Shown here: positions 49,584 to 64,000 of the stretch, piece by piece
Layout: each line of letters begins with the position of its first letter
Position numbering within the stretch: the stretch's first letter is position 1
Assembly: GCA_964628205.1 (NCBI GenBank)
Contig: CAZVMM010000009.1
Span: 2,226 to 66,225, forward strand
Source: an uncultured Muribaculaceae bacterium
Lineage (GTDB): Bacteria; Bacteroidota; Bacteroidia; Bacteroidales; Muribaculaceae
Direction: 5' to 3'
Length of the DNA stretch: 64,000 nt
Translations under genes and position numbers: made by a program
Notes under the pieces: generated by a model
Told to the model about the DNA's origin: nothing
The model's input: the letters and a program-made list of their open reading frames with translations, nothing else
Databases searched by the model: none

Positions 49584-51518
<1,935 letters not shown>

Positions 51519-53370: not shown

Positions 53371-53409
53371 AACTGAGACATCTGAAACGACTGAGACAAC
53401 TGAGACAAC
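53371..53409 (+). repeat. three direct copies of (A)ACTGAGACA, the last forming the left arm of the terminator stem
   Basis: AACTGAGACA at 53371..53380, ACTGAGACA at 53390..53398, AACTGAGACA at 53398..53407. An inverted copy lies at 53428..53440. Confidence 0.7.
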
Positions 53410-53440
53410 GCCTTGTGCAAAATGGCTGTTGTCTCAGTTG
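53397..53440. terminator. bidirectional terminator between lptB and the convergent six-gene operon
   Basis: Perfect 13-bp stem CAACTGAGACAAC/GTTGTCTCAGTTG with an 18-nt loop. Sits in the 117-bp gap between two convergent stops. Confidence 0.65.
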
Positions 53441-53465: not shown

Positions 53466-55295
53466 TTAACGATGGGCGGCAATGCGCCAGATGGTGCCCT
53501 CGATGAGCGAGCAGTAGACGTCGCCAGTCGTTGGATCCACTTCAAAGCCGTTGACCTCGCTGGTACCCAGGCGATAGGTATATTCCAGCTGATGGGTCTT
53601 GGCGTTCACGACCGCCAGCATGCCACGGCGTGAGCCGCAGTAGATCAAGCCATCATGCTCGAGGATGATGCAGGGGGCGTGCTCATAGCCGAAGCCCAAA
53701 TCGACCTGCCACAAGAACTGATATTGCTCCCCAGTGCTCATGGCCACGAGCGTGCCGTCCATGGTCTTGGCATAGGCCACCTCACCGTCAGCGCTGCGGC
53801 CCAGGCTCTCTCGCACCTTGTTCTCGTTCTTCACGCGCCACAGTTGGGCGCCACTGTGGCGGTCGATGGCGGTCGTGTAGCGGTCAGGGGCGACGATGAC
53901 CACACGATCGGGCGTGACGACGGGCACCACATTGCCGGGGCTGTAGAGTCGAGCGGTTCGGCCATTGTCCCACTGCCATTTCATGGTCCCCGTTCGATGG
54001 TCGAGGCATCGCAGCCGAGTGTCCCACGCGCCAAAGATAACATCACTGCCAGCGATGACAGGCGCTGCCTGACAATAGTTGCCGATGCTATCGAAATGCC
54101 ACAACAGACGATGCCGCTTCACATCCCACGCCTGGAACGTTTTGTAACCGCCCTGGTACAAGATACCGTCACGGACCACACCGTCGGCAACATAGGGGCC
54201 ATCGGCCTGAAACTGCCACTGGGGCTTGCCGGTCTTCTTATCGAGCCAGATGAGGCGCTTGTCGCTCGTGGGCAGCACCACATACCGGCCGTCCACTGCG
54301 GGACGCGAAAACAGCATGGCACCAGTCTTGTACTGCCAGCGCACCTGGCCCGTGACCTTGTCCACCGCTTTGCAATAGCCCAGCGAATTGCCGTAGTACA
54401 GATTCTTGCCGTCCACACCTACGCGGGTAAAGATGGACGCATTGTCGGCCACAACACGCTGAATGGTGACACCGCCAGGCACCGCGGGAGTCTCCTGAAC
54501 GCAGGGGCTGTCGTGATAATCAAGATTGATGCGATAGGAGAACATCACCTCGGGGTCTTTCCCGATCACCTTATTAAATACATATATCCACTGACGGTCT
54601 AGGTCGATGGTCATCAGGGTGTAACCATAGTCGCCACCGCCCATGTCCAGGGCCCGCACAATCACGCCGTTGATGCCGTCGGTCTCATAGAGACGCCAGC
54701 GGTGATAGTGTCCGCACTGATGGGTGACCACGGGATACTTCTTGAGCACATCGACATAGGCGCGGTAATTGTCCAAATCATCGAGAATGGGATAATGGTT
54801 CACGCTGAGCACCCGCATGCCAGGCCCCACCATGACGTTAAGCGTGCTGTCGAGCCACAGCAGGTCTTCCTGCTTGATGTGCCCGTCACCCATTTTCATG
54901 AACGGGCCGCAATTCATTCCCACGACCACCAGGCTATCGATTGTGAACACAAATCGGTCGCTGCCCCACAGGTCATTGAAGGTTTTGCAAGCGCTCTGGC
55001 TCCAGTTGTTCTCGTGATTGCCAGGAATAACATACAGGGGATGGCAGACGCCATCGAGGATGCCCTTTACATTACGCAACTGCTCATCACTACCCTCATC
55101 GGTGAGGTCGCCCGTCATGAGCACCGCATCGACATCTGTAGCATTGATCTCGGCCACGGCGTCTCGCAGTTTGGCCTCGTTGGTATTGCCGGGATTGACA
55201 TGGATATCGCTGAGGATAGCCAATCGGACCACCCCACCCTGCATGGCCAGCGACAGCGTGAGCACGATGGCCAGTAAAGATATCATACGTTTCAT
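53466..55295 (-). CDS. secreted calcineurin-like metallophosphoesterase fused to a PQQ/BamB-like beta-propeller
   Basis: 609 aa with signal peptide MKRMISLLAIVLTLSLAMQ. All five phosphoesterase motifs are present (SDIH, TGDL, GNHEN, NHYP, CGHYH). Followed by repeated ...G..RWQ/ WQF/ LWHF/ KWQW propeller blades. Confidence 0.85.
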   Translation of the reverse strand: MKRMISLLAIVLTLSLAMQGGVVRLAILSDIHVNPGNTNEAKLRDAVAEINATDVDAVLMTGDLTDEGSDEQLRNVKGILDGVCHPLYVIPGNHENNWSQSACKTFNDLWGSDRFVFTIDSLVVVGMNCGPFMKMGDGHIKQEDLLWLDSTLNVMVGPGMRVLSVNHYPILDDLDNYRAYVDVLKKYPVVTHQCGHYHRWRLYETDGINGVIVRALDMGGGDYGYTLMTIDLDRQWIYVFNKVIGKDPEVMFSYRINLDYHDSPCVQETPAVPGGVTIQRVVADNASIFTRVGVDGKNLYYGNSLGYCKAVDKVTGQVRWQYKTGAMLFSRPAVDGRYVVLPTSDKRLIWLDKKTGKPQWQFQADGPYVADGVVRDGILYQGGYKTFQAWDVKRHRLLWHFDSIGNYCQAAPVIAGSDVIFGAWDTRLRCLDHRTGTMKWQWDNGRTARLYSPGNVVPVVTPDRVVIVAPDRYTTAIDRHSGAQLWRVKNENKVRESLGRSADGEVAYAKTMDGTLVAMSTGEQYQFLWQVDLGFGYEHAPCIILEHDGLIYCGSRRGMLAVVNAKTHQLEYTYRLGTSEVNGFEVDPTTGDVYCSLIEGTIWRIAAHR

Positions 55296-55324
55296 CAGCT
55301 TCAGAGGGTGATTAAGGATTGATG

Positions 55325-56485
55325 TTAAAGTTTCTCGACGACATCATTTTCTCCACACGGCATCGTGATGGTGCTGTTGTAGAGCGGGAAGAGCGCGTTC
55401 ACCTGATAGGTGGTGCGCTGTTGCTCCAAGGGGATAAACACGCTGACCTTCCCCTTGCTGTCGGTTCGGGTCTTTACGCCTCCCACCTGGATTGGAGAGT
55501 TGGGGATGAAGGATTCGGTCTCACGGTCCCATAAACCGAAACTCACGTTGCCATATACCTGAACGTCACGATAAATGTTCACGTTCATGTCGCGAGACAG
55601 CTCCATCATCGTGTCAATCGGCATAAAATCAGGGCAGTTGACCGTCACGTGGACCGAGTGATTCAAGAAATGCTGCGGAATGTTGGTGAAAATGGCCGCA
55701 TCGTCGAGCGAGACGATGGTGTCGGTCTTAGACTCATTATCCAGTTCCAGCATGACTACGGCATCGCGCAGCGGCGGCAACTCATTGTTGTGGTAAGAGG
55801 CCTCCCGCAGGCGCAGGGTCGCGTCGACAGGCCTGAAATGGTACCAAGCGCCGAATATCGCCATCACAACCGCTAGCAATCCCAGAATAGAGAAGATGAG
55901 TTGCCTCAATAACTGCCGCTTGTGGCGCTGCCAGATGGAATCAAACTCGACATCTAGCAGTTTGGATACCAGCTGGACGTAAGCCCGCTCGCGGTTAATC
56001 CAAGCCAACTTGTAATTCTTCTCGTTAACATTGGCTCCCAAAATTTCTTGCAGGCCTAGCCGCTCGGTGACAGGATGGAAACACTCCGTGTCTGGGTCTC
56101 CACTATGCGGAGTGCCGTCAACAATGAAGAAATGGATGTTTTCGGTACGCCCCAAACTGTGGAAAAACTCAATCTCCTTGCCCACCCACTCGGACTTGGC
56201 CGAATTGGGCGAACAGATGACGATCAGGTTTCTTGAAGCCATAAGGCGCTGCTTCAGCTCATCGCTCAGTCCGCCGGGCTGTATGTCGGTGGGCGCGAAG
56301 AAGACGGGGCGGATAGGGGTGCGCTTCCATCCGCGCTGGTTACACATTGTAGCCGGCATGCGGTAGTGCTCCAGCTTGCGCTGCAACCTCTTGCCCCACT
56401 GGGTGTCCCTGGAGTTGTAACTGATGAAGGCAAAATACTTGAACTCATGCCCAGATGTGATATGGCCTTGTTCCTTCTCAATCAT
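55325..56485 (-). CDS. single-pass membrane TIR-domain protein (cytoplasmic TIR, periplasmic beta-sandwich-like C-terminal domain)
   Basis: 386 aa. TIR start FKYFAFISYNSRD. SPNSAKSEWVGKEIEFF matches the SxxSxWxxxE motif (E104, codon 56174..56176). TM LIFSILGLLAVVMAIFGAWY (55841..55900) is preceded by the K/R-rich WQRHKRQLLRQ. Confidence 0.85.
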   Translation of the reverse strand: MIEKEQGHITSGHEFKYFAFISYNSRDTQWGKRLQRKLEHYRMPATMCNQRGWKRTPIRPVFFAPTDIQPGGLSDELKQRLMASRNLIVICSPNSAKSEWVGKEIEFFHSLGRTENIHFFIVDGTPHSGDPDTECFHPVTERLGLQEILGANVNEKNYKLAWINRERAYVQLVSKLLDVEFDSIWQRHKRQLLRQLIFSILGLLAVVMAIFGAWYHFRPVDATLRLREASYHNNELPPLRDAVVMLELDNESKTDTIVSLDDAAIFTNIPQHFLNHSVHVTVNCPDFMPIDTMMELSRDMNVNIYRDVQVYGNVSFGLWDRETESFIPNSPIQVGGVKTRTDSKGKVSVFIPLEQQRTTYQVNALFPLYNSTITMPCGENDVVEKL

Positions 56486-56504
56486 AGCGATTTCGGTTAA
56501 AACG

Positions 56505-58016
56505 TTAAAGCGACATCTGTTTCCAGTCGTCGTTAGTATAAGATGTGAAGGTCATCGGGGTCTGGCTTTTGCCGAGAGGCAAAGTGCGGGCCACATTTTT
56601 GACATTGTTGTTGATATCCTTGGCCAGCTTGCCTAACGTGACCATGCCTTGGGTCTCCTGCAACTCTTTGAGGAGATAATAGGTGAAGAGGCCGTGCCCC
56701 TCTTCAGGATAGTTCTGCGCCGTTTCATTACCATGAGTTGCCGCCAGGACAATCATGTTACCCACGGTGGGTTTGGCATCCTGTGCCTCGACCTCAACTG
56801 CCCGCTCGACCACGAGCGACTCGTTATCACGATTGACCCCGCTGAAGCAGGCATCAAGAAAGACCGTGACGTTGGCAAATCCCAATCGGCCCAACTTGTC
56901 ATAAAACTCATCGAGGGCAATACCGTGGTTAGGCTTGGAGCCCTTAACATCAGTAGGCAGCAAGTAGGACTTGTTGTTGTCCTGAATATCGGGCACGCCA
57001 TGCCCAGCATAGAAGACGACCAGTTTCTTGAGACGGCGGTCAGGCACTTCGTTACACCAGTCACCAAGCAATTCCTCGAGGATGATGTGCTTAGTGGCAT
57101 CGAGAGAGACCATGATATTGGAAGCGGGGATACCGAGCGTCTTCTTGCAGTACTCGGCAAAAACGGTGGCATCGTTTTGGGCATAGGGCACAGCTGCCAC
57201 GTGGCGATAGTTCTCGTTACCGATGATCAGGGCATAGGTATCATTGCGTACGACAAGAGGTTCGGGGATTTCAATATCGACGGCCGACACACGCTCCTGC
57301 ATCAGCGCCGGACTGGATTTCTTGAGAAACAGCGCGACGGATTCCTGACTCAAGCCATACTCAGCACAATTCTCGGTGTTGATGTTGCGGGGCAGATTAC
57401 GTATCTCTCCCTTGTAATAGATGTGCTTGGCCCGACCGTCCTCCATGACCTCGGTGGCGAAAACGGCTTTGCCCAACATGGCGTTATTTCCCACTTCGAT
57501 CACGTTGAGGTTGGTACAGGAGAGGAAGGCCATGTCCTCGACACGCGTCAGGCTGGGAATGCTGACCGACCGCAGCGACGAGCAATTGGCAAAGGCGACC
57601 GTGGCGATACGCTTCACATAAGGCGGCATGGAGAAATTGAAGAGGTTGCGGCAATTCAGGAAAGCGCCCCACCCGATCTCATTGATCATCGCGTATTGGA
57701 TTTCAACTGTGTTCAGTTCTTCACAATTGGCAAATGCGCATGAACCGATAGTCCCGATGCCTACACCAATAACCACCTTACGGATGGCAAGATTTTGCTT
57801 GATCCACGGCGCACGGTTGCCGTCCAGGTCGTAGTCAGGCATGGATACCGCATTCTTCTTGGGGGCAAGACTACTTATATATAATGTGCGGCCATCAAAT
57901 GTCCACTCCACATCACCGTTGCATTTTCCCGAAGCGGCCTTGGTGTTCTGCGCCATTGCGGAAAGGAGGCACAACGAGCTGAACAGAATGGTTATTAGCA
58001 AACACTTTTTCATCAT
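56505..58016 (-). CDS. secreted BspA-type LRR (LRR_5) - caspase (peptidase C14) fusion protein
   Basis: 503 aa with signal peptide MMKKCLLITILFSSLCLLSAMAQ. LRR_5 repeats (IGSCAFANCEELNTVEI, IGWGAFLNCRNL, IATVAFANCSSLRSVSIP, EDMAFLSCTNLNVIEV). Caspase dyad contexts VVFYAGHG (H339, 57000..57002) and VFLDACFSG (C390, 56847..56849). Confidence 0.85.
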   Translation of the reverse strand: MMKKCLLITILFSSLCLLSAMAQNTKAASGKCNGDVEWTFDGRTLYISSLAPKKNAVSMPDYDLDGNRAPWIKQNLAIRKVVIGVGIGTIGSCAFANCEELNTVEIQYAMINEIGWGAFLNCRNLFNFSMPPYVKRIATVAFANCSSLRSVSIPSLTRVEDMAFLSCTNLNVIEVGNNAMLGKAVFATEVMEDGRAKHIYYKGEIRNLPRNINTENCAEYGLSQESVALFLKKSSPALMQERVSAVDIEIPEPLVVRNDTYALIIGNENYRHVAAVPYAQNDATVFAEYCKKTLGIPASNIMVSLDATKHIILEELLGDWCNEVPDRRLKKLVVFYAGHGVPDIQDNNKSYLLPTDVKGSKPNHGIALDEFYDKLGRLGFANVTVFLDACFSGVNRDNESLVVERAVEVEAQDAKPTVGNMIVLAATHGNETAQNYPEEGHGLFTYYLLKELQETQGMVTLGKLAKDINNNVKNVARTLPLGKSQTPMTFTSYTNDDWKQMSL

Positions 58017-58027
58017 GCTGGTAATGT

Positions 58028-58885
58028 TTAGAACCTGAATTGCAGGTACACACGACCTGTCTTCTGCTTCATTTTCATCTTGCCGGTGTCCAAGTCATCG
58101 TCCAGGTAAGTGTAATTCAGCTTACCATCGTTGCGGAACTCGTATCCGATGCCGACAAAATTCCATGTCAGATTGCCGCCAAAAGACGTGTACAGGCCAT
58201 GGCCCAGAGCCTTGCCATCAGAAACCTCGCCCTTGTCGACCATCGCTTCACTTATCATCGACAGCTGAACCGTATATCCCACATGGAAGTAGAGTTGCAG
58301 CCTGATATTGTCGGTTCCCCACCGCTCTAGTGAGGTGAAAGGATAGAAAGTGAGCGACGGGCCCACCATCATGCCATAGTCGATGGTCTTCTTCTTGTTA
58401 TGCCAGGGCATGCAACCGATAGAGGATTCTTCGCTATTCTTATAAGACGCAGGGGCGGCCGTTTCCTTATACTGATTGAAATTCAGATCCAGCCAGGTGT
58501 AATCCAGTCCCAGGAACAACACATTGCCGAGCGGGTTCTTGTGGAAATTGAAGGTATGTCCCCACTGCAGGCCAAGTCCCCACTGATTCTGGAACTCATT
58601 GCTGAACGCACCCGAAACTGACGGGAATTCATCAGACGACAGCTTGGTCGTATTGTAACTGATGTTCAGGTATGTGTTTTTACTCCAGATGGAGCGCAAG
58701 CTCGCCATGTAGTCATTCTCCTTCATGGCCTTTCCCTCTTGGGCGATAGTCTCAGCCAGCGTAACCACTCGTGTTGTGTCATCACCGGCAGCGTTGTTTA
58801 CTGAGATGGGAGCCGAAATGCCTTCGTTGGCCGAGATGGCCAGTGCACAAAAGACTGCAATTGCTGAAAAAAAGAATCGTTTCAT
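58028..58885 (-). CDS. outer-membrane beta-barrel protein
   Basis: 285 aa with signal peptide MKRFFFSAIAVFCALAISA. Alternating amphipathic strands (WGLGLQWGHTFNF, IRLQLYFHVGYTVQL, GGNLTWNFVGIGYEF). C-terminal aromatic ...RVYLQFRF. Confidence 0.75.
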   Translation of the reverse strand: MKRFFFSAIAVFCALAISANEGISAPISVNNAAGDDTTRVVTLAETIAQEGKAMKENDYMASLRSIWSKNTYLNISYNTTKLSSDEFPSVSGAFSNEFQNQWGLGLQWGHTFNFHKNPLGNVLFLGLDYTWLDLNFNQYKETAAPASYKNSEESSIGCMPWHNKKKTIDYGMMVGPSLTFYPFTSLERWGTDNIRLQLYFHVGYTVQLSMISEAMVDKGEVSDGKALGHGLYTSFGGNLTWNFVGIGYEFRNDGKLNYTYLDDDLDTGKMKMKQKTGRVYLQFRF

Positions 58886-58908
58886 TGTCGTAATAATTTC
58901 TTTTATGA

Positions 58909-61179
58909 TTAATGATTTAGTGATTGTTTTATCTGTTCGACTGCTTGACGGGCATTATCAGGAATGATGCCGATGGCCTCGAATTGCCTGAAGTCGTCAA
59001 GGAAAGTATCTCTCAATTCTTGTTTATACTCTTGGTAGATCGACATGGCCTGTTCTCGCTCTCCCATGAACAACAACGCCGCAGCCAGATTGGCCCGGAT
59101 GAATGTCTTGGTGCTGTCGATATCCAGCCCGGCACGGGCATATTCAGCGGCCTTGATGAAATTACCCGTCAGCAGGGCATGATTTGACAGGTTGCCGTAG
59201 GAGCGAGCCACATGCGAATTGTAATCCCGGGGCGACAGGCGGGCGAGTTCCTGGTTAATGTCCAGCTCCTCTTGGTAATACCTACCGGCATCGTCCCATT
59301 GGCGAAGCTTATCACAGGCGGTGGCCATGTTGCGCAATAGCTTTGCCTTTTCAGGACGATACGTGTCGGGGTTCAAAATCTCAAGGGCCGAATAGGCATC
59401 CAGAGCGATGCCAAACAGTGTTTTGCTTTTTTCCATTTCATCATCCTGGTAACATCTAACACCCTGCTGATAAGCCCGATCGGCAATCAGTGGCAGATAA
59501 CGCACCGGATTTTCGTAGGCCAGCTGCTTGTATAACTCCAGAGACTCGATAAGAGCACGCTCCCCCTTTTCTGGATCGCTGGTAGCGAAATAGAGGACCG
59601 ACAGGTTGTTGAGGGCGGTTGCCATCATGGGAGCGTAATACTGAGAATCGGCCTCTGAGAGGTGGCGATAGACACCCAGCGACTCGTCAAGCAGGCTGAT
59701 GGCTTGCTCGATATTCAGGTCATTGCGGTAATAGAGCGTGGACAAATTGATGAGTGTTGCCGCGTAGTCGGCCAGATAGGCGCCACTATCAGCCTTGCCC
59801 AACTGCCGGTAGAGCGCCAGTGCCTTGCTGAACATCAGTTCGCTGTCATAGAAACGTCCGCCAGCGGCGCCATAGAGCAGAGCCAGATTATTGAATGTCG
59901 AGGCCACGGCTGGGCCATAAATCTCGGGCATTTCTTGACTGAGCGGCATATAGATGTCCAAGGCATCATTGTAGAGGCGCTCGATGGTGGACAAATCTCG
60001 CGACTCTCTGGAATAGAGCACCGCCAGATTGTTCAGCACCGAAGCCAGCAGAGGTTTGAAGGTCAAAGTGTCAGCCGAGGCCAGACGGCGGTATATGCCA
60101 ATGGCTTCATCGAATAAGGGTTCTGCCATCGACGGTTGTGCCGACTCGGAATAAAGCATGGCTATGTTGTTGAGTGTCCTGGCCAATAGCGGTTCATACC
60201 GCCCGGGGTCCGTCTGGGCCAGGCCACGGGATGCATCGATGGCTTTCCGGTAGTACTGCGCCGCCTTGTCGGCCAGTCCCCGCTGCTGCAGGTAACTGCC
60301 GGCATCGGCTTGCCACTGAGGATTCATGGCGTCTAAGCCGGCTCGTTTCTCGATGTAATATGTTGCGGAATCGTTCTCGTGTGCCAGAGCAAAACGCTGG
60401 AAAAAGCTGAAGCAGTCACGGGCGATGTCCTCGCGCTGGGTTTTCTCAACCATTTCGCTCTTTTCCACCATCTCGCGCGATATCACATTCGCTTCGTGGA
60501 GCTGATTGAGTTCATTGATGCGCTCATTCATGTCGCCCTTGGTCCTGAGCAGGGAGTCGGCACTTGCCAGATTTCCGTTCAAGATAAAATCGCCAACGCG
60601 CCGGTTGAAGTCATCGAGCATGTCATAATCGATGGTAGCATAGTATTCCGCCATTCTGCGCACCAGCATCGCGTTCTTGTCCTGCTGGTCATAAAGGTCC
60701 TGAATCTGCTGCAGATACTGCTGCTGAGAGACCTTGTTCTGCCTTTTCAGCTCATTGATTTCATTTTCCTTCCTATTCAGGTCACGGGTCATGGCTTTGT
60801 TGATCTGGCGCTGTGCGGCCAATTTGTCCTCAAGCAGCTGATCTGGCGTATCCATGACCAGGATGATGGGACTAGTCGAGTAGGTATAGACCTTGGGTGC
60901 CGCATCGGCGTCGACCAGCTGATATCCTTTTTTCCTGACAGACTCTATCTTGAAACTCTTTCCCGGAATCGGGAAGGAGAACGAGCCGTTGCGGTTCTCG
61001 ACAACGACACTGGTTCGTCCCTGGATGTGCACGGTAGCGCCAGTGAGTCCCTGACCTGACTGGTGCCTGCCAGCGACCAGGCGGCCACGTGTTTTCACCA
61101 CCCCGTGCTGGGTCTGTGCCAATGCCCAAGCGCCCACAAATACGCAGATCAGAAACAATATCAGTTTTTTCATATTCAT
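58909..61179 (-). CDS. secreted CarboxypepD_reg-like + coiled-coil + multi-TPR (TPR_12-type) protein
   Basis: 756 aa with signal peptide MNMKKLILFLICVFVGAWALAQ. N-terminal beta-sandwich (GATVHIQGRTSVVVENRNGSFSFPIPGKSFKIESVRKKGYQ). A Q/E-rich coiled coil. At least 8 kinesin-light-chain-like TPRs (ALNNLAVLY..A..IY..L pattern repeated). Confidence 0.85.
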   Translation of the reverse strand: MNMKKLILFLICVFVGAWALAQTQHGVVKTRGRLVAGRHQSGQGLTGATVHIQGRTSVVVENRNGSFSFPIPGKSFKIESVRKKGYQLVDADAAPKVYTYSTSPIILVMDTPDQLLEDKLAAQRQINKAMTRDLNRKENEINELKRQNKVSQQQYLQQIQDLYDQQDKNAMLVRRMAEYYATIDYDMLDDFNRRVGDFILNGNLASADSLLRTKGDMNERINELNQLHEANVISREMVEKSEMVEKTQREDIARDCFSFFQRFALAHENDSATYYIEKRAGLDAMNPQWQADAGSYLQQRGLADKAAQYYRKAIDASRGLAQTDPGRYEPLLARTLNNIAMLYSESAQPSMAEPLFDEAIGIYRRLASADTLTFKPLLASVLNNLAVLYSRESRDLSTIERLYNDALDIYMPLSQEMPEIYGPAVASTFNNLALLYGAAGGRFYDSELMFSKALALYRQLGKADSGAYLADYAATLINLSTLYYRNDLNIEQAISLLDESLGVYRHLSEADSQYYAPMMATALNNLSVLYFATSDPEKGERALIESLELYKQLAYENPVRYLPLIADRAYQQGVRCYQDDEMEKSKTLFGIALDAYSALEILNPDTYRPEKAKLLRNMATACDKLRQWDDAGRYYQEELDINQELARLSPRDYNSHVARSYGNLSNHALLTGNFIKAAEYARAGLDIDSTKTFIRANLAAALLFMGEREQAMSIYQEYKQELRDTFLDDFRQFEAIGIIPDNARQAVEQIKQSLNH

Positions 61180-61195
61180 GAGATAAGGGGTTGTC

Positions 61196-63535
61196 CTAAA
61201 TTATGCCCAAAGAAACATCCACAATATTATAATCATAACTCTTGACCCGCGTCGAGAGTTCTTGCCAAGGTTTAAGGCAACCGTGAAGCATTCTCACCTC
61301 ATTCTTGTAGTCCACGTCGCCATGGTCACGGTAGCCCAGGATCTCGTGCGATGCCACCCAGCGCAGGTGTTCGGTCTGGGCAATCACGTCGAGGACACGT
61401 GTCACTGCCTGGTCGGGGGATGATTCTTGCCACAGATAAGTTGTCTGGTTCACCTCCCTGGACAAGACATGGCTTGTCAGCAGGGCAGCGCGATCATCAC
61501 CGAGGGCCAGCGCCGCCAGCTGCTGCTTGGTCAGCTTGTGGAAACAGTTCTCCATGTTCTGCCGCTGCATGCGCCTTAACTTGGTTATCCCCGTAAGCGT
61601 GGGGCTATACCCCGGATACTCGTCATCGTTGAGCTGCATCAGCCTGCGTTGCTGCTCATCCCAGCTCTCTATTTTCTCTCCAGCAGCGCCTTTCAGGTTA
61701 CGGATGGACTCCTCGTACTTCTCCATAAAAGCGCGCGCCTCGCGGTTGATTGTGTCGCCAACTACACTATCCCAAGTAAAGACCCCACTCAAGGAGCCAA
61801 AACAAGTAATCGGTGCATTGAGGTGCTCGGTCTTGGTAATCGTGTGCTGATGCTGGTGCCCGCCATCGCTGCAGCATTCGGCCGCCCACAAGCGGTTATA
61901 GTGCTCGGCGATGCGTTTCAGATGACCATCATGGTCGCCACAGACGCGCACCAGAATGCGTAAGTGCCTCATGTCCTTACGGTAACGCACCGCCAGCCGC
62001 AGGATCCGCACCGCCAGCGACATGTTAGATTCATCATCATCGAGGGTTATGACAACATAGTTGAGCTTGTCGATGATCTTTTCCACATATTTATAAAAGG
62101 CCACGCTGCCCGTGTCCACGTCATGGAGCAAGATGTGCGTGTTGGCCTGCGACGGTTCTCCGTCAAGCGCTTCACGGCACACGATAGCAGGAGAATTGAA
62201 GGCAAACACCCCCGCATGGGTCATGATGTCCTTATCGACCACATCACAGTGGAAGGGGGCGCGTTGCACATTATCATCAGTGCTGCCGCTCTTGACAAAC
62301 GACCCAAACTCATAGAGAAAGCGTACTGAGTCATAGCCCACCTCGCCAAAGCCGACAACCAAGGCGTTGAAGGCCGACGAAACTGTCGCGTCGTGCTCGA
62401 CATCAACGTAGCTGACAGGGTGCAGGGTCACATCCTGCTTAAGCATCTCTACGCTGATATGTGACGGATCGACTACCCGAACCGTGCAACGCGCGTTATG
62501 CTGCTCATCCTCAATGACACGGTGCATGCTGTTGTAACGCGCCTTGCAGTACAGCGTGACAGGCACGGTAGCGTCACCCACGGTAACGTCCCGCTTCAGG
62601 CATTGCACTATCTTGATGTTGACATCGTCCTTGTCGGTGAGGACAAACATGTGCAAGCTCCCGGTGGTCTTGCGCCGAATGATCCGAGCGAGCTGGTTGA
62701 GGTTGAGCATACGCTTCAGCACATCACTGTATCCTAGGCCGTCCTGTAGCGAAAGCTGAGAGGCGTCAGCATAGGTACCTGTCGTCAGACAGTCGAGCTC
62801 GATCAGGCGCTCCAGGTCATTATCGCGCAGGGAGACAAAATTGAATAGCCGCTCCATGCCATTCTTGACACTGCCGGCATCGCCCTTGTGGTTGGTGCGG
62901 ACAATGATGATGCGGAACGCACCTTCGCGGCCACGGTAATGTTCCTTGATGCTTTGGGCGAGCAGATAGGTGGGTTCGTTCAATCCCCAAAACACAAAAG
63001 TGTCCCGCTTGCCCCCGAGCACGTAAGCCTCGAGAAACATCCTGAAAGCGGCAATGATGTTGTAACCGAAGTGTCTGATCACAAACATCAGAGTGATGAT
63101 CGCTGCCAAGAAGTGTGCCAGCGAGAAAAACAGCATAAAGAGCCAATTGTGGTGAAATGCAGATTGAATGGCCGCCGCATCGCTCTCCAAGAGGAACATT
63201 TCGGTGGAATGGATGATAGCCATCGGCACATTAGTGAGCAGGGACCACCGGCTATGATCGATGTACATGCCGACATCATAAACCACAAACCCTAACAGCC
63301 ATACGACAAAAAAAGAGGTGGTCAGCATCCGGCTGGCCAACCGTGACCAGCGATTATGTCGGCTGCGATAGAGTAAGAGCATCAACAGTATCCCCAAGAT
63401 GACTGCCACCACACCCAACAGACTGCTGCACCGGGCCATATCAATCAGGAACGGGTTTGCGCCATCAGTCTCGAGCTGCTCATGCGGCAGACATGCAAAC
63501 CAGTTGGCTATATTCAATAGAGGGGATAGACTCAT
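61196..63535 (-). CDS. polytopic inner-membrane protein with two Rossmann-like (TrkA-N-like) domains and a RyR-like C-terminal domain
   Basis: 779 aa with about four N-terminal hydrophobic helices (aa 38-155). GxGxxG at aa 395-400 (VVGFGEVG, 62336..62353). C-terminal IAQTEHLRWVASHEILGYRD...LKPWQELS...KSYDYNIVDV resembles the bacterial RyR domain (recollection, not searched). CDS confidence is high; domain calls are moderate. Confidence 0.75.
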   Translation of the reverse strand: MSLSPLLNIANWFACLPHEQLETDGANPFLIDMARCSSLLGVVAVILGILLMLLLYRSRHNRWSRLASRMLTTSFFVVWLLGFVVYDVGMYIDHSRWSLLTNVPMAIIHSTEMFLLESDAAAIQSAFHHNWLFMLFFSLAHFLAAIITLMFVIRHFGYNIIAAFRMFLEAYVLGGKRDTFVFWGLNEPTYLLAQSIKEHYRGREGAFRIIIVRTNHKGDAGSVKNGMERLFNFVSLRDNDLERLIELDCLTTGTYADASQLSLQDGLGYSDVLKRMLNLNQLARIIRRKTTGSLHMFVLTDKDDVNIKIVQCLKRDVTVGDATVPVTLYCKARYNSMHRVIEDEQHNARCTVRVVDPSHISVEMLKQDVTLHPVSYVDVEHDATVSSAFNALVVGFGEVGYDSVRFLYEFGSFVKSGSTDDNVQRAPFHCDVVDKDIMTHAGVFAFNSPAIVCREALDGEPSQANTHILLHDVDTGSVAFYKYVEKIIDKLNYVVITLDDDESNMSLAVRILRLAVRYRKDMRHLRILVRVCGDHDGHLKRIAEHYNRLWAAECCSDGGHQHQHTITKTEHLNAPITCFGSLSGVFTWDSVVGDTINREARAFMEKYEESIRNLKGAAGEKIESWDEQQRRLMQLNDDEYPGYSPTLTGITKLRRMQRQNMENCFHKLTKQQLAALALGDDRAALLTSHVLSREVNQTTYLWQESSPDQAVTRVLDVIAQTEHLRWVASHEILGYRDHGDVDYKNEVRMLHGCLKPWQELSTRVKSYDYNIVDVSLGII

Positions 63536-63576
63536 ATTCTGATAAACATAAATTCACGAAAAAAAGAATGAATGCG

Positions 63577-63584
63577 CAAATTTA
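63577..63584 (-). promoter_or_regulatory. -7 box TAAATTTG for the six-gene TIR/caspase operon
   Basis: CAAATTTA on the + strand, 42 nt upstream of ATG 63535. It is the only TAnnTTTG match I found in the right orientation in the 184-bp divergent intergenic region. Confidence 0.5.
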
Positions 63585-63703: not shown

Positions 63704-63711
63704 TAACTTTG
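63704..63711 (+). promoter_or_regulatory. -7 box TAACTTTG for the lolE-like gene (near-leaderless)
   Basis: The box ends 9 nt before ATG 63720. Confidence 0.45.
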
Positions 63712-63719
63712 CAGCCGGA

Positions 63720-64000
63720 ATGAATCACGAGTTGTACATCTCACGACGCATGACGCTGAACAACGAGCGGCAGAAAGGCTCCCCGAGTCTGACGGTCGCC
63801 CTTGTTGGCATTGTGCTTGCCGTGGTGGTGATGATACTGTCCATCGCCATCGTGATGGGATTCAAGGGTGAAATCACTGGCAAAATCATGCATCTGGACG
63901 CCCACTTGAGAGTCACCAATGCCGCGCTGGGCATCGATGACAACTATGCCACAATCAACGGCCGTGAGGTGCGTGAAGCCGTGGCTGGCGACAGCACCAT
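63720..64000 (+). CDS. FtsX-like ABC transporter permease (LolE/LolC-like), N-terminal fragment running off the window end
   Basis: My translation: MNHELYISRRMTLNNERQKGSPSLTVALVGIVLAVVVMILSIAIVMGFKGEITGKIMHLDAHLRVTNA..., the typical LolE/FtsX N-terminus. A TAACTTTG -7 box lies 9 nt upstream. Confidence 0.75.
   Translation, partial: MNHELYISRRMTLNNERQKGSPSLTVALVGIVLAVVVMILSIAIVMGFKGEITGKIMHLDAHLRVTNAALGIDDNYATINGREVREAVAGDST

Follow-up and report, generated by a model that had tools for sequence, protein, structure and literature searches.

A modular TIR-TPR-RyR operon family of gut Bacteroidales with a possible route from a membrane TIR protein to a channel-like RyR protein

The known Thoeris systems sense infection in the cytoplasm. 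Their current catalogue comprises types I-XI and 29 putative types, including type X, a TIR protein paired with an ion channel that protects against phage and whose signal is unknown (10.64898/2025.12.03.692087). Two preprints of May-June 2026 describe phage proteins of the RyR family (PF02026): one reports that they hydrolyse (RyDEP) or sequester the cyclic ADP-ribose (cADPR) isomers 2'cADPR and 3'cADPR, contacts being made at H75, W78, H100 and D117, and notes the structural likeness of phage RyR to a 'putative ryanodine receptor' of Bacteroides thetaiotaomicron (PMC13232231), and the other that RyR Tad binds 3'cADPR, 2'cADPR and cADPR through H129/W132, H154 and D171 (10.64898/2026.06.04.730250); both ask what cADPR binding means for animal ryanodine receptors. 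Here we describe a six-gene operon from a 64,000-nucleotide stretch of DNA of an uncultured Muribaculaceae bacterium (the window; contig CAZVMM010000009.1, positions 2,226 to 66,225), in which a membrane-anchored TIR protein is encoded together with a channel-like protein carrying a predicted RyR domain. The operon is a variant of a widespread, modular TIR-TPR-RyR system of gut Bacteroidales that is absent from the catalogues and papers that we searched.

Six minus-strand open reading frames (ORFs), separated from gene 1 to gene 6 by gaps of only 16, 23, 11, 19 and 29 bp, form one conserved transcription-unit-like operon; all six lie where an earlier, model-generated reading of this DNA (the preliminary description) had placed them. 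Gene 1 (61196..63535; 779 amino acids (aa)) encodes the channel-like membrane protein, the proposed effector and signal receiver, and gene 2 (58909..61179; 756 aa) an exported TPR protein that is the constant partner of the TIR protein. Gene 3 (58028..58885; 285 aa) specifies a small outer-membrane beta-barrel that almost always accompanies the product of gene 4 (56505..58016; 503 aa), an exported BspA-type LRR protein with a caspase (Peptidase_C14) domain, which is an optional protease module. The invariant core is gene 5 (55325..56485; 386 aa), whose product consists of a TIR domain, a transmembrane (TM) helix and an ectodomain. Lastly, gene 6 (53466..55295; 609 aa) encodes an exported calcineurin-like metallophosphoesterase with a PQQ/BamB-like beta-propeller, which is also optional.

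PADLOC and NCBIfam searches of the six window proteins yielded only generic matches of the caspase and ThsB-TIR type and no named system, in keeping with the preliminary description, which had proposed a candidate undescribed system. The usual TIR partners were, as it had stated, absent from the operon by PADLOC, and none of the recognised Thoeris effectors (SIR2-SLOG, Macro-TM, caspase ThsE, DUF2270, DUF6650, SLATT and others) was detected by PADLOC next to the TIR gene. In the literature covered, outside of which lies Burroughs et al. 2015 (NAR), we found no description of operons combining TIR, RyR and caspase/TPR proteins, and searches for the B. thetaiotaomicron protein 3NRT found none either. 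TIR-RyR operons of bacterial hosts go unmentioned in both phage RyR preprints (PMC13232231, 10.64898/2026.06.04.730250) and in the Thoeris catalogue, and neither 'RyR' nor PF02026 occurs in the text of that catalogue or in the supplements searched (10.64898/2025.12.03.692087).

The closest known relative in logic is Thoeris, and type X especially. Both type X and the operon place a ThsB-type TIR with a catalytic Glu, the mark of Thoeris membership that gene 5 carries, beside a membrane channel-like protein, and the proposal made below, that a TIR-made NAD derivative switches on a membrane effector, is Thoeris logic. The pairing of TIR and channel is nevertheless the only feature common to the operon and type X, whose channel was compared by description only. 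Thoeris TIRs are soluble and encoded in two-gene operons that are enriched in defence islands, whereas the operon has a single-pass TIR protein with an ectodomain, six genes and housekeeping flanks, together with exported TPR proteins as constant partners and RCK plus RyR as the putative effector. The system thus departs from Thoeris in three respects: its TIR is anchored in the membrane, it has a layer of sensors outside the cytoplasm, and RyR is the likely receiver.

The gene 5 protein comprises, in order, a cytoplasmic TIR domain, one TM helix (residues 196-214) and an extracytoplasmic tandem beta-sandwich (219-386); from hydrophobicity and charge, the positive residues on the TIR side of the helix place the TIR domain inside the cell. 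The TIR domain of the preliminary description was borne out by Pfam (TIR_2, E 6.8e-10; ThsB_TIR, 30.7 bits, where the cut-off is 21.2), and PADLOC also returned ThsB matches. E104 lies in a W-x-x-x-E motif, aligns with the Glu of the TLR2 'YEL' and is invariant among 16 gene 5 sequences. In an AlphaFold2 (AF2) model, the ectodomain forms two confident beta-sandwiches within residues 219-386 (predicted local distance difference test, pLDDT, ~90). Foldseek matched the TIR part to the RPS4, RUN1 and SARM1 TIRs and the ectodomain to pilin/CnaB/CarboxypepD_reg-like sandwiches. Homologues are plentiful: 3590 were detectable, of which the best 120 are full length with at least 62% identity and none is informatively named, and an exact-sequence look-up of the window protein found no identical record. 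One stretch of the TIR domain, RMPATMCNQRGWKRTPIRPVFFAPTDIQPGG (window 56282-56362, residues 42-68), is near-invariant in 16 orthologues, yet its pLDDT in the model stays under 50; it represents either an insertion specific to this family or a BB-loop-like element.

In being single-pass, with a sensor outside and the TIR domain inside, gene 5 is like the Toll-like receptors. Its ectodomain is instead Ig-like, and the LRR sits on the separate exported caspase, such that no polypeptide here carries both LRR and TIR.

The AF2 model of gene 1, computed from an alignment of 25 homologues (pLDDT 76; predicted TM-score, pTM, 0.72), shows three long TM helices followed by two Rossmann/RCK domains and a C-terminal helical domain, with a short helix-loop between the second and third TM helices at the position of a pore helix. 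The membrane/pore region (63023..63457, minus strand; residues 27-171), as outlined by model secondary structure, hydrophobicity and conservation, runs from TM1 through a loop of positive charge to TM2, and on through short helices (97-115) and the ESDAAAIQS loop to a long inner helix, and includes the invariant residues P104, M105, F114, D119 and A122. The short helices and the ESDAAAIQS loop may constitute a pore loop. Foldseek searches of the PDB placed the GsuK K+ channel first (4gx5, E 1.2e-7 over 626 columns; 4j9v, E 1e-6), with further matches to the TrkA gating ring, Slo2.2, Slo1 and MthK.

Gene 1 would thus share with GsuK, MthK, Slo1/Slo2 and TrkA a predicted succession of pore-helix-like membrane helices and two RCK/Rossmann domains, and the tandem RCK after a membrane domain that typifies RCK channels is present in the predicted model. 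Unlike the RCK-gated K+ channels, it has one more TM helix at the N-terminus and an RyR domain at the C-terminus, and no TVGYG-type selectivity filter was found in it, the corresponding loop being ESDAAAIQS with its invariant Asp. A GxGxxG-type motif, VGFGEVG, can be read in the second Rossmann domain. Pfam matched no channel or TrkA_N model in gene 1, and the homologues, a family of 633 clusters at 50% identity, are all unannotated. Of the domains named in the preliminary description, CarboxypepD_reg and TrkA_N were not recovered by Pfam in the window proteins, although the predicted folds agree with both; TPR_12, LRR_5, Peptidase_C14, TIR_2, Metallophos and PQQ_2 were recovered, and OMP_b-brl and RyR appeared below threshold only.

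The C-terminal RyR (R12-like) domain of gene 1 (61208..61411, minus strand; H723, W726, H751 and D768) fell below the Pfam gathering threshold (E 7e-4; 20.2 bits against 27.4). Phmmer against the PDB gave a B. thetaiotaomicron/RyR1 chimera (E 0.026), hhalign against stand-alone RyR proteins gave E 0.004 at low probability. Searching the PDB with a profile of the gene 1 alignment produced nothing better than the single-sequence search. A hidden Markov model of the small RyR proteins matched the extreme C-terminus in 53 of 120 gene 1 homologues, and PF02026 is precomputed on two homologues, P0189 and P0218; the stand-alone RyR proteins of related loci clearly pass the PF02026 threshold. H723, W726, H751 (+28) and D768 (+45) are invariant among 25 gene 1 homologues and align on H38, W41, H63 and D80 of the stand-alone proteins. 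The four ligand-contact residues (His, Trp at +3, His at about +25, Asp at about +42) are therefore all present, and their spacing equals that of RyDEP and RyR Tad, given a 3-residue insertion.

These separate tests of the RyR domain agree with one another, and the prediction for gene 1 is a membrane protein with a pore loop, two RCK domains and, at its C-terminus, an RyR domain. The preliminary description had listed it as an RyR-like membrane protein and treated it as a bystander. The RyR signal, faint as it is, was found again. Besides the TIR protein, gene 1 is the only product with a large cytoplasmic portion; it is a predicted RCK-gated, channel-like protein, and its RyR domain is of a family now known to bind TIR products. 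The RyR domain of gene 1 is the strongest functional link in the operon.

To place the operon among its relatives, one genome per GTDB species was scanned by a motif-based method, which gives a lower bound. Relatives of gene 5 occur in at least 231 species. The best 80 nearly all bear Bacteroidales labels (Muribaculaceae/Sodaliphilus, Prevotella and Bacteroidaceae), mostly on metagenome-assembled genomes of rumen and gut, with Bacillota bin names on two records, and their gene 5 orthologues are 55-68% identical. For 83 non-redundant loci, ORFs were called, the proteins clustered and partners counted within 10 kb. Exported TPR proteins, often 2-5 paralogues, accompany the TIR gene at 79 of the 83 loci, and 94 of 107 long TPR partners have a signal-like hydrophobic N-terminus, the exceptions looking like start miscalls or truncations. 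Any RyR-domain protein is present at 58/83, a stand-alone or small-fusion RyR at 36/83 and RyR fused to TM/RCK at 49/83. The remaining modules are scarcer: LRR-caspase 14/83, outer-membrane barrel 13/83, phosphoesterase-propeller 13/83 and TPR-CHAT 5/83, with the barrel found alongside the caspase at 13 of the 14 caspase loci. A check of neighbourhood conservation proposed in the preliminary description thus came out in favour of TIR with TPR and RyR, while the caspase, barrel and phosphoesterase proved optional.

The full six- or seven-gene order holds in the closest relatives only, and we therefore rejected the reading that the six genes form one unit whose synteny is fixed everywhere. Contigs whose TIR protein is 62-68% identical have the same gene order plus a seventh gene, for a 100-aa RyR protein, between the TIR and phosphoesterase genes (L001:11168-11470 and L004:11162-11458). 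Minimal variants consist of channel and TIR (L007, L051, L061 and L066); L007 retains channel, TIR and phosphoesterase only and is devoid of TPR, barrel and caspase. The channel gene itself is found at the operon start, directly upstream or downstream of the TIR gene, or split into an MscS-like protein and a soluble RCK-RyR protein, which indicates that the linkage survived repeated rearrangement. The split arrangement is seen at L054:3686-8071 (also L083, L074-L076 and L084), where a recurrent block ahead of the TPR-TIR genes encodes a DUF4301 protein, a TerB-like protein of 106 aa and an MscS-like channel, as well as a soluble RCK-RyR protein of ~370 aa and a small RyR; this block looks like a split version of gene 1.

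Accessory clusters identified with Pfam include a second TM plus RCK plus RyR-like family with a weak Slo-like_RCK match, TerB, DUF4301, two kinds of protease (exported TPR-CHAT and TM-anchored trypsin-like) and a kinase-like fragment, and at other loci the position of the protease is taken by exported CHAT or trypsin. RyR is also fused to a Peptidase_C39-like cysteine protease, at L022:1901-2995 (minus strand) with a zinc ribbon and at L091:10931-11905 (plus strand), which suggests that RyR is a portable ligand-sensing module on different types of effector. Distant homologues of gene 1 (47-48% identity) lie at two kinds of locus. At one, L091:197-13476, are encoded two proteins with C-terminal TIR domains of a different family (491 and 461 aa), nSTAND1, TPR-CHAT, the gene 1 homologue, the C39-like peptidase-RyR, the intramembrane protease PrsW and an RyR protein of 93 aa; the others combine CHAT, trypsin, kinase-like and small RyR proteins, with NUDIX, patatin, HD or PIN nearby. 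Together, these loci indicate that RyR-bearing proteins and TIR enzymes meet repeatedly, in varied arrangements and with different TIR families.

L091 also bridges the TIR-TPR-RyR system to STAND-based conflict systems. The NTP-dependent conflict systems (Kaur, Burroughs, Iyer & Aravind, eLife 2020) share TPR-CHAT, caspase, trypsin and TIR modules with the relatives, and nSTAND1 with L091. The window operon differs from them in that its proteases are exported and that none of the six proteins contains a STAND, vWA-MoxR or GTPase core, nSTAND1 being found only in the distant L091; RyR, RCK and ion channels go unmentioned in Kaur et al.

The B. thetaiotaomicron 'putative ryanodine receptor' of known structure, 3NRT (also 4N05 and 6UAG), is an orthologue of the stand-alone RyR gene (E 7e-38). 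Its chromosomal locus (L093/L094:10001-17009) is flanked by frr, rsgA and pyrH-type genes. There the RyR gene lies directly upstream of a gene for a 682-aa TM plus RCK plus RyR-like protein, and the locus also encodes an exported CarboxypepD_reg/coiled-coil protein, a membrane protein with a TIR-like part, a TM helix and CarboxypepD_reg, and, convergently, a TPR protein. The N-terminus of the membrane protein gave weak DUF4062/TIR_2 matches (E ~0.006); we rejected it as a gene 5 orthologue after a negative tblastn search, its architecture being analogous. Like the window, the B. thetaiotaomicron locus has an RyR/RCK membrane protein, exported partners and the same logic; unlike the window, it contains a stand-alone RyR gene and no caspase, barrel or phosphoesterase. 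The identical RyR protein appeared in more than 21,000 assembly-collection blocks, which suggests that the gene is widely present in that common gut species.

Stand-alone RyR homologues are encoded in 238 phage records. RyDEP and RyR Tad belong to the same domain family as gene 1 and the stand-alone RyR proteins of the loci, with the H/W/H/D residues conserved. On the phage side, the proteins act against defence, as sponges or glycosidases that turn Thoeris off; the Bacteroidales RyR proteins are host-encoded, lie in a TIR operon and are fused to a channel (or, in relatives, to a C39-like peptidase). Because the host RyR shares an operon with the TIR gene and is fused to a channel, it would be the receiver of the signal or its built-in off-switch. 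A small RyR in a record labelled 'UNVERIFIED Bacteriophage sp.' from human faeces (MT837259.1, L095:11070-11342; 68% identical to the query and 75% to the closest locus copy) was considered as a phage capture and rejected, since the record has been neither verified nor annotated and the gene that follows is similar to the downstream neighbour in bacteria; it is probably a bacterial fragment and not a phage-captured sponge.

Genes 2, 3, 4 and 6 each begin with an N-terminal hydrophobic signal region, conserved in the orthologues of genes 3, 4 and 6, in line with the four signal peptides of the preliminary description. Gene 2 is composed of a signal peptide, an N-terminal beta-rich domain, a coiled coil and a TPR_12/TPR_10 array (Pfam). 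Gene 3 matched OMP_b-brl below threshold (E 2.7e-4) and ends in LQFRF; a signal peptide and a C-terminal QFRF are kept in 13 orthologues. In gene 4, Pfam identified LRR_5 (E 1.3e-19) and Peptidase_C14 (PF00656; E 9.7e-18), and NCBIfam caspase_w_EACC1 was reached below threshold. Its signal peptide and the motifs [YF]xGHG and D[AS]CxSG, which hold the putative His-Cys dyad, are kept in all 14 orthologues, in agreement with the catalytic His and Cys assigned beforehand; given the conserved signal peptide, we rejected the reading of the caspase as a cytoplasmic effector resembling that of type IV Thoeris. Gene 6 matched Metallophos (E 1.4e-13) and PQQ_2 (E 3.4e-25) in Pfam and, weakly, the cyclic-nucleotide phosphodiesterases SpdA/CpdA in NCBIfam, and its signal peptide and DxH, GNH[ED] and GHxH motifs are retained in 13 orthologues. 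The cytoplasm-facing parts of the whole set are the TIR domain and the cytoplasmic portion of gene 1, all else being extracytoplasmic, which upholds the earlier topology.

Since the TIR domain and the RCK-RyR portion of gene 1 are the sole cytoplasmic modules of the operon, signalling by a messenger from one to the other is the most economical reading. The system would have three layers: a single-pass protein with a TIR domain, predicted to be catalytically competent, inside and a tandem Ig-like/CarboxypepD_reg-like domain outside; constant exported TPR protein(s), with optional LRR-caspase and barrel, CHAT, trypsin or phosphoesterase-propeller; and cytoplasm-facing RyR proteins, here gene 1. 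An extracytoplasmic event may alter the assembly of TPR proteins and ectodomain and so cluster the TIR protein, and the clustered TIRs, to judge from the conserved catalytic Glu and the ThsB type, would turn NAD+ into a messenger of the cADPR type. The messenger, or the fall in NAD+, could then be read by the RyR/RCK portion of gene 1, opening or closing the pore and changing ion flux and membrane potential; this gating step is suggested by the fold, the four conserved ligand residues and the published binding of cADPR by phage RyR. In relatives, the 100-aa stand-alone RyR would probably buffer or hydrolyse the messenger, and its gene has been lost from the window; if it does buffer the TIR signal, the window lineage runs without that buffer. 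Activity, binding, conduction, the direction of the signal and its trigger are what we infer here from an observed anatomy and observed associations.

We put the chances that a TIR-made messenger is sensed by the RyR/RCK portion of gene 1 at about even. Several observations weigh against it. RyR proteins are lacking within 10 kb at 25 of the 83 loci (~30%), several of which are short, truncated contigs, and because the 83 loci share descent, the counts cannot be taken as independent events, a point softened by L091 and by how varied the arrangements are. The window itself has no small RyR gene, the 29 bp at 55296-55324 being all that separates the TIR and phosphoesterase genes, and the gene is also missing in L007. 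Gene 1 has no K+ filter, and the word 'channel' stands for likeness of fold, at TM-scores of 0.25-0.4; the assignment of its RyR domain, read from sequence, is statistically weak in every single test. Four of the six products are extracytoplasmic and have no assigned role in the model. Lastly, about 10 of 139 flanking ORFs (66 loci) matched PADLOC, mostly as generic ATPase/radical-SAM-type proteins and counted without a matched background, and the housekeeping setting and the widespread B. thetaiotaomicron gene are unlike typical mobile defence islands.

The most likely role of the system is a conflict or abortive response to phage or envelope attack, Thoeris-like with an outside-in trigger, but this is the least secure part of our account and we hold it with less confidence than the TIR-to-RyR/RCK coupling. 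The conflict system put forward in the preliminary description keeps its conserved operon, unmatched by any named system, and loses its protease-cascade core; neither the operon nor its relatives lie in defence islands, a setting that the preliminary description had proposed to check. With no defence-gene enrichment among the 139 flanking ORFs, housekeeping flanks in the window, in L001/L004 and in B. thetaiotaomicron, a TIR protein highly conserved in Bacteroidales (55-68% identity in the 80 best loci) and recurrent neighbours such as an MscS-like channel, TerB and DUF4301, the genes might instead encode a physiological second-messenger system. TIR and the RCK-RyR channel would then tune ion or osmotic homeostasis or envelope physiology, with TPR, protease and phosphoesterase serving envelope maintenance and the cues coming from the envelope or the host. 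In ordinary K+ transport, TrkA and GsuK sense NAD(H)/nucleotides through their RCK domains, and it is these that the fold of gene 1 matches. Module shuffling, the 2-5 TPR paralogues per locus and the swapping of caspase, CHAT and trypsin are, however, typical traits of conflict systems; nSTAND1 and additional TIR genes occur in one variant, the distribution over at least 231 species looks patchy, and the bacterial TIR signalling systems characterised to date are all anti-phage. We regard a physiological role as unlikely, but as a serious rival.

Two further readings would dispense with gene 1 as receiver. The preliminary description had likened the operon to a split Toll pathway, in which the exported LRR-caspase, with TPR and barrel as scaffold, senses a ligand and activates the TIR by cleaving its ectodomain. 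The topology is suitable (LRR-caspase, TPR and barrel exported, TIR ectodomain outside), the caspase catalytic motifs are conserved and exported proteases recur in other variants (CHAT, TM-anchored trypsin). Yet the rarity of the LRR-caspase means that such a cascade cannot be the core logic: caspase (14/83), barrel (13/83), phosphoesterase (13/83) and CHAT (5/83) are all in the minority, most TIR-TPR loci have no protease whatever and L007 keeps TIR and channel while having neither TPR nor barrel nor caspase. A conserved cleavage site was not identified, and gene 1 and the RyR proteins are left with no role. A cascade of this kind is very unlikely as the explanation of the operon, but could describe what the protease module contributes. 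We think it slightly less probable still that the TIR is an NAD+-depleting killer with no messenger, the RyR/channel genes being unrelated neighbours or a guard against stray ADP-ribose. Many bacterial TIRs do deplete NAD+ (CBASS, Pycsar, pAgo, Avs), and 25 of the 83 loci have no RyR gene. An RyR gene nevertheless lies within 10 kb at 58/83 loci in several arrangements (elsewhere in these genomes it is expected to be rare), the RyR ligand residues are invariant in 25 gene 1 homologues, and the TIR scores as ThsB-type, the kind that produces a signal.

The TIR-to-RyR/RCK coupling that we favour invites comparison with the cADPR-ryanodine receptor Ca2+ axis, which likewise has a TIR-type enzyme and an RyR-repeat channel in one pathway, as is proposed here. 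The channel of gene 1 is RCK-type and unrelated to the RyR pore; if there is an evolutionary link, it extends no further than the RyR repeat domain. A full prokaryotic version of that axis, in which exported TPR/Ig-like sensors cluster a TM TIR in the outside-in manner of a Toll-like receptor and its cADPR-type product gates a cation channel through RyR, is a tentative extension that we find rather doubtful. On that reading, RyR would join SLOG, Macro and SAVED as a receiver domain for TIR signals, and the system might even be the evolutionary source of the cADPR-to-ryanodine-receptor axis.

Upstream of the operon, a Bacteroidetes-type -7 box, TAAATTTG (63577..63584, minus strand), was located by direct reading and pattern search, 42-49 nt 5' of the gene 1 ATG and inside a 191-bp AT-rich divergent spacer. 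The box of the preliminary description is thus present at a fitting position; the motif TANNTTTG is itself not significantly enriched in the window (28 observed against 19.7 expected), so that only its placement upstream of the ATG carries meaning. The hairpin that had been placed downstream was borne out by RNA folding: at 53397..53440, between the convergent gene 6 and ABC ATPase gene, and likely a bidirectional terminator, it has a 13-14 bp stem, -27.4 kcal/mol and z = -6.75, a fold that none of 200 shuffles equalled. Housekeeping genes flank the operon on both sides, as described before. Downstream are those for an ABC ATPase, uridine kinase, DnaK, glycogen phosphorylase, TamB and Omp85; upstream is a divergent FtsX/LolE-like gene (about 63727-64000, plus strand), which starts ~190 bp from the operon on a plus strand read by eye and has its own TAACTTTG box (window 63704-63711, plus strand). 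L004-L006 share this neighbour but not the downstream flank, so that conservation of the insertion site is partial. Within operon genes and dnaK run long antisense ORFs of 315-556 aa (53655-54602, 56649-57743 and 49800-51470, all plus strand); they gave no family matches and are most likely by-products of codon usage at 53-60% G+C.

If the coupling is real, this operon family would supply the host-side half of RyR biology, with a TIR enzyme and an RyR channel under common selection; the literature searched contains no host system that uses an RyR domain. It would be the first TIR signalling system in which the TIR protein acts as a receptor in the membrane, with a layer of sensors outside the cytoplasm. 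It would also offer a tractable bacterial model of an RyR repeat that reads an ADP-ribose-derived ligand. Lying outside defence islands, the family would be invisible to screens based on defence-island enrichment. It is common in human-gut and rumen Bacteroidales, and the B. thetaiotaomicron variant, beside the crystallised 3NRT protein, makes experiments feasible.

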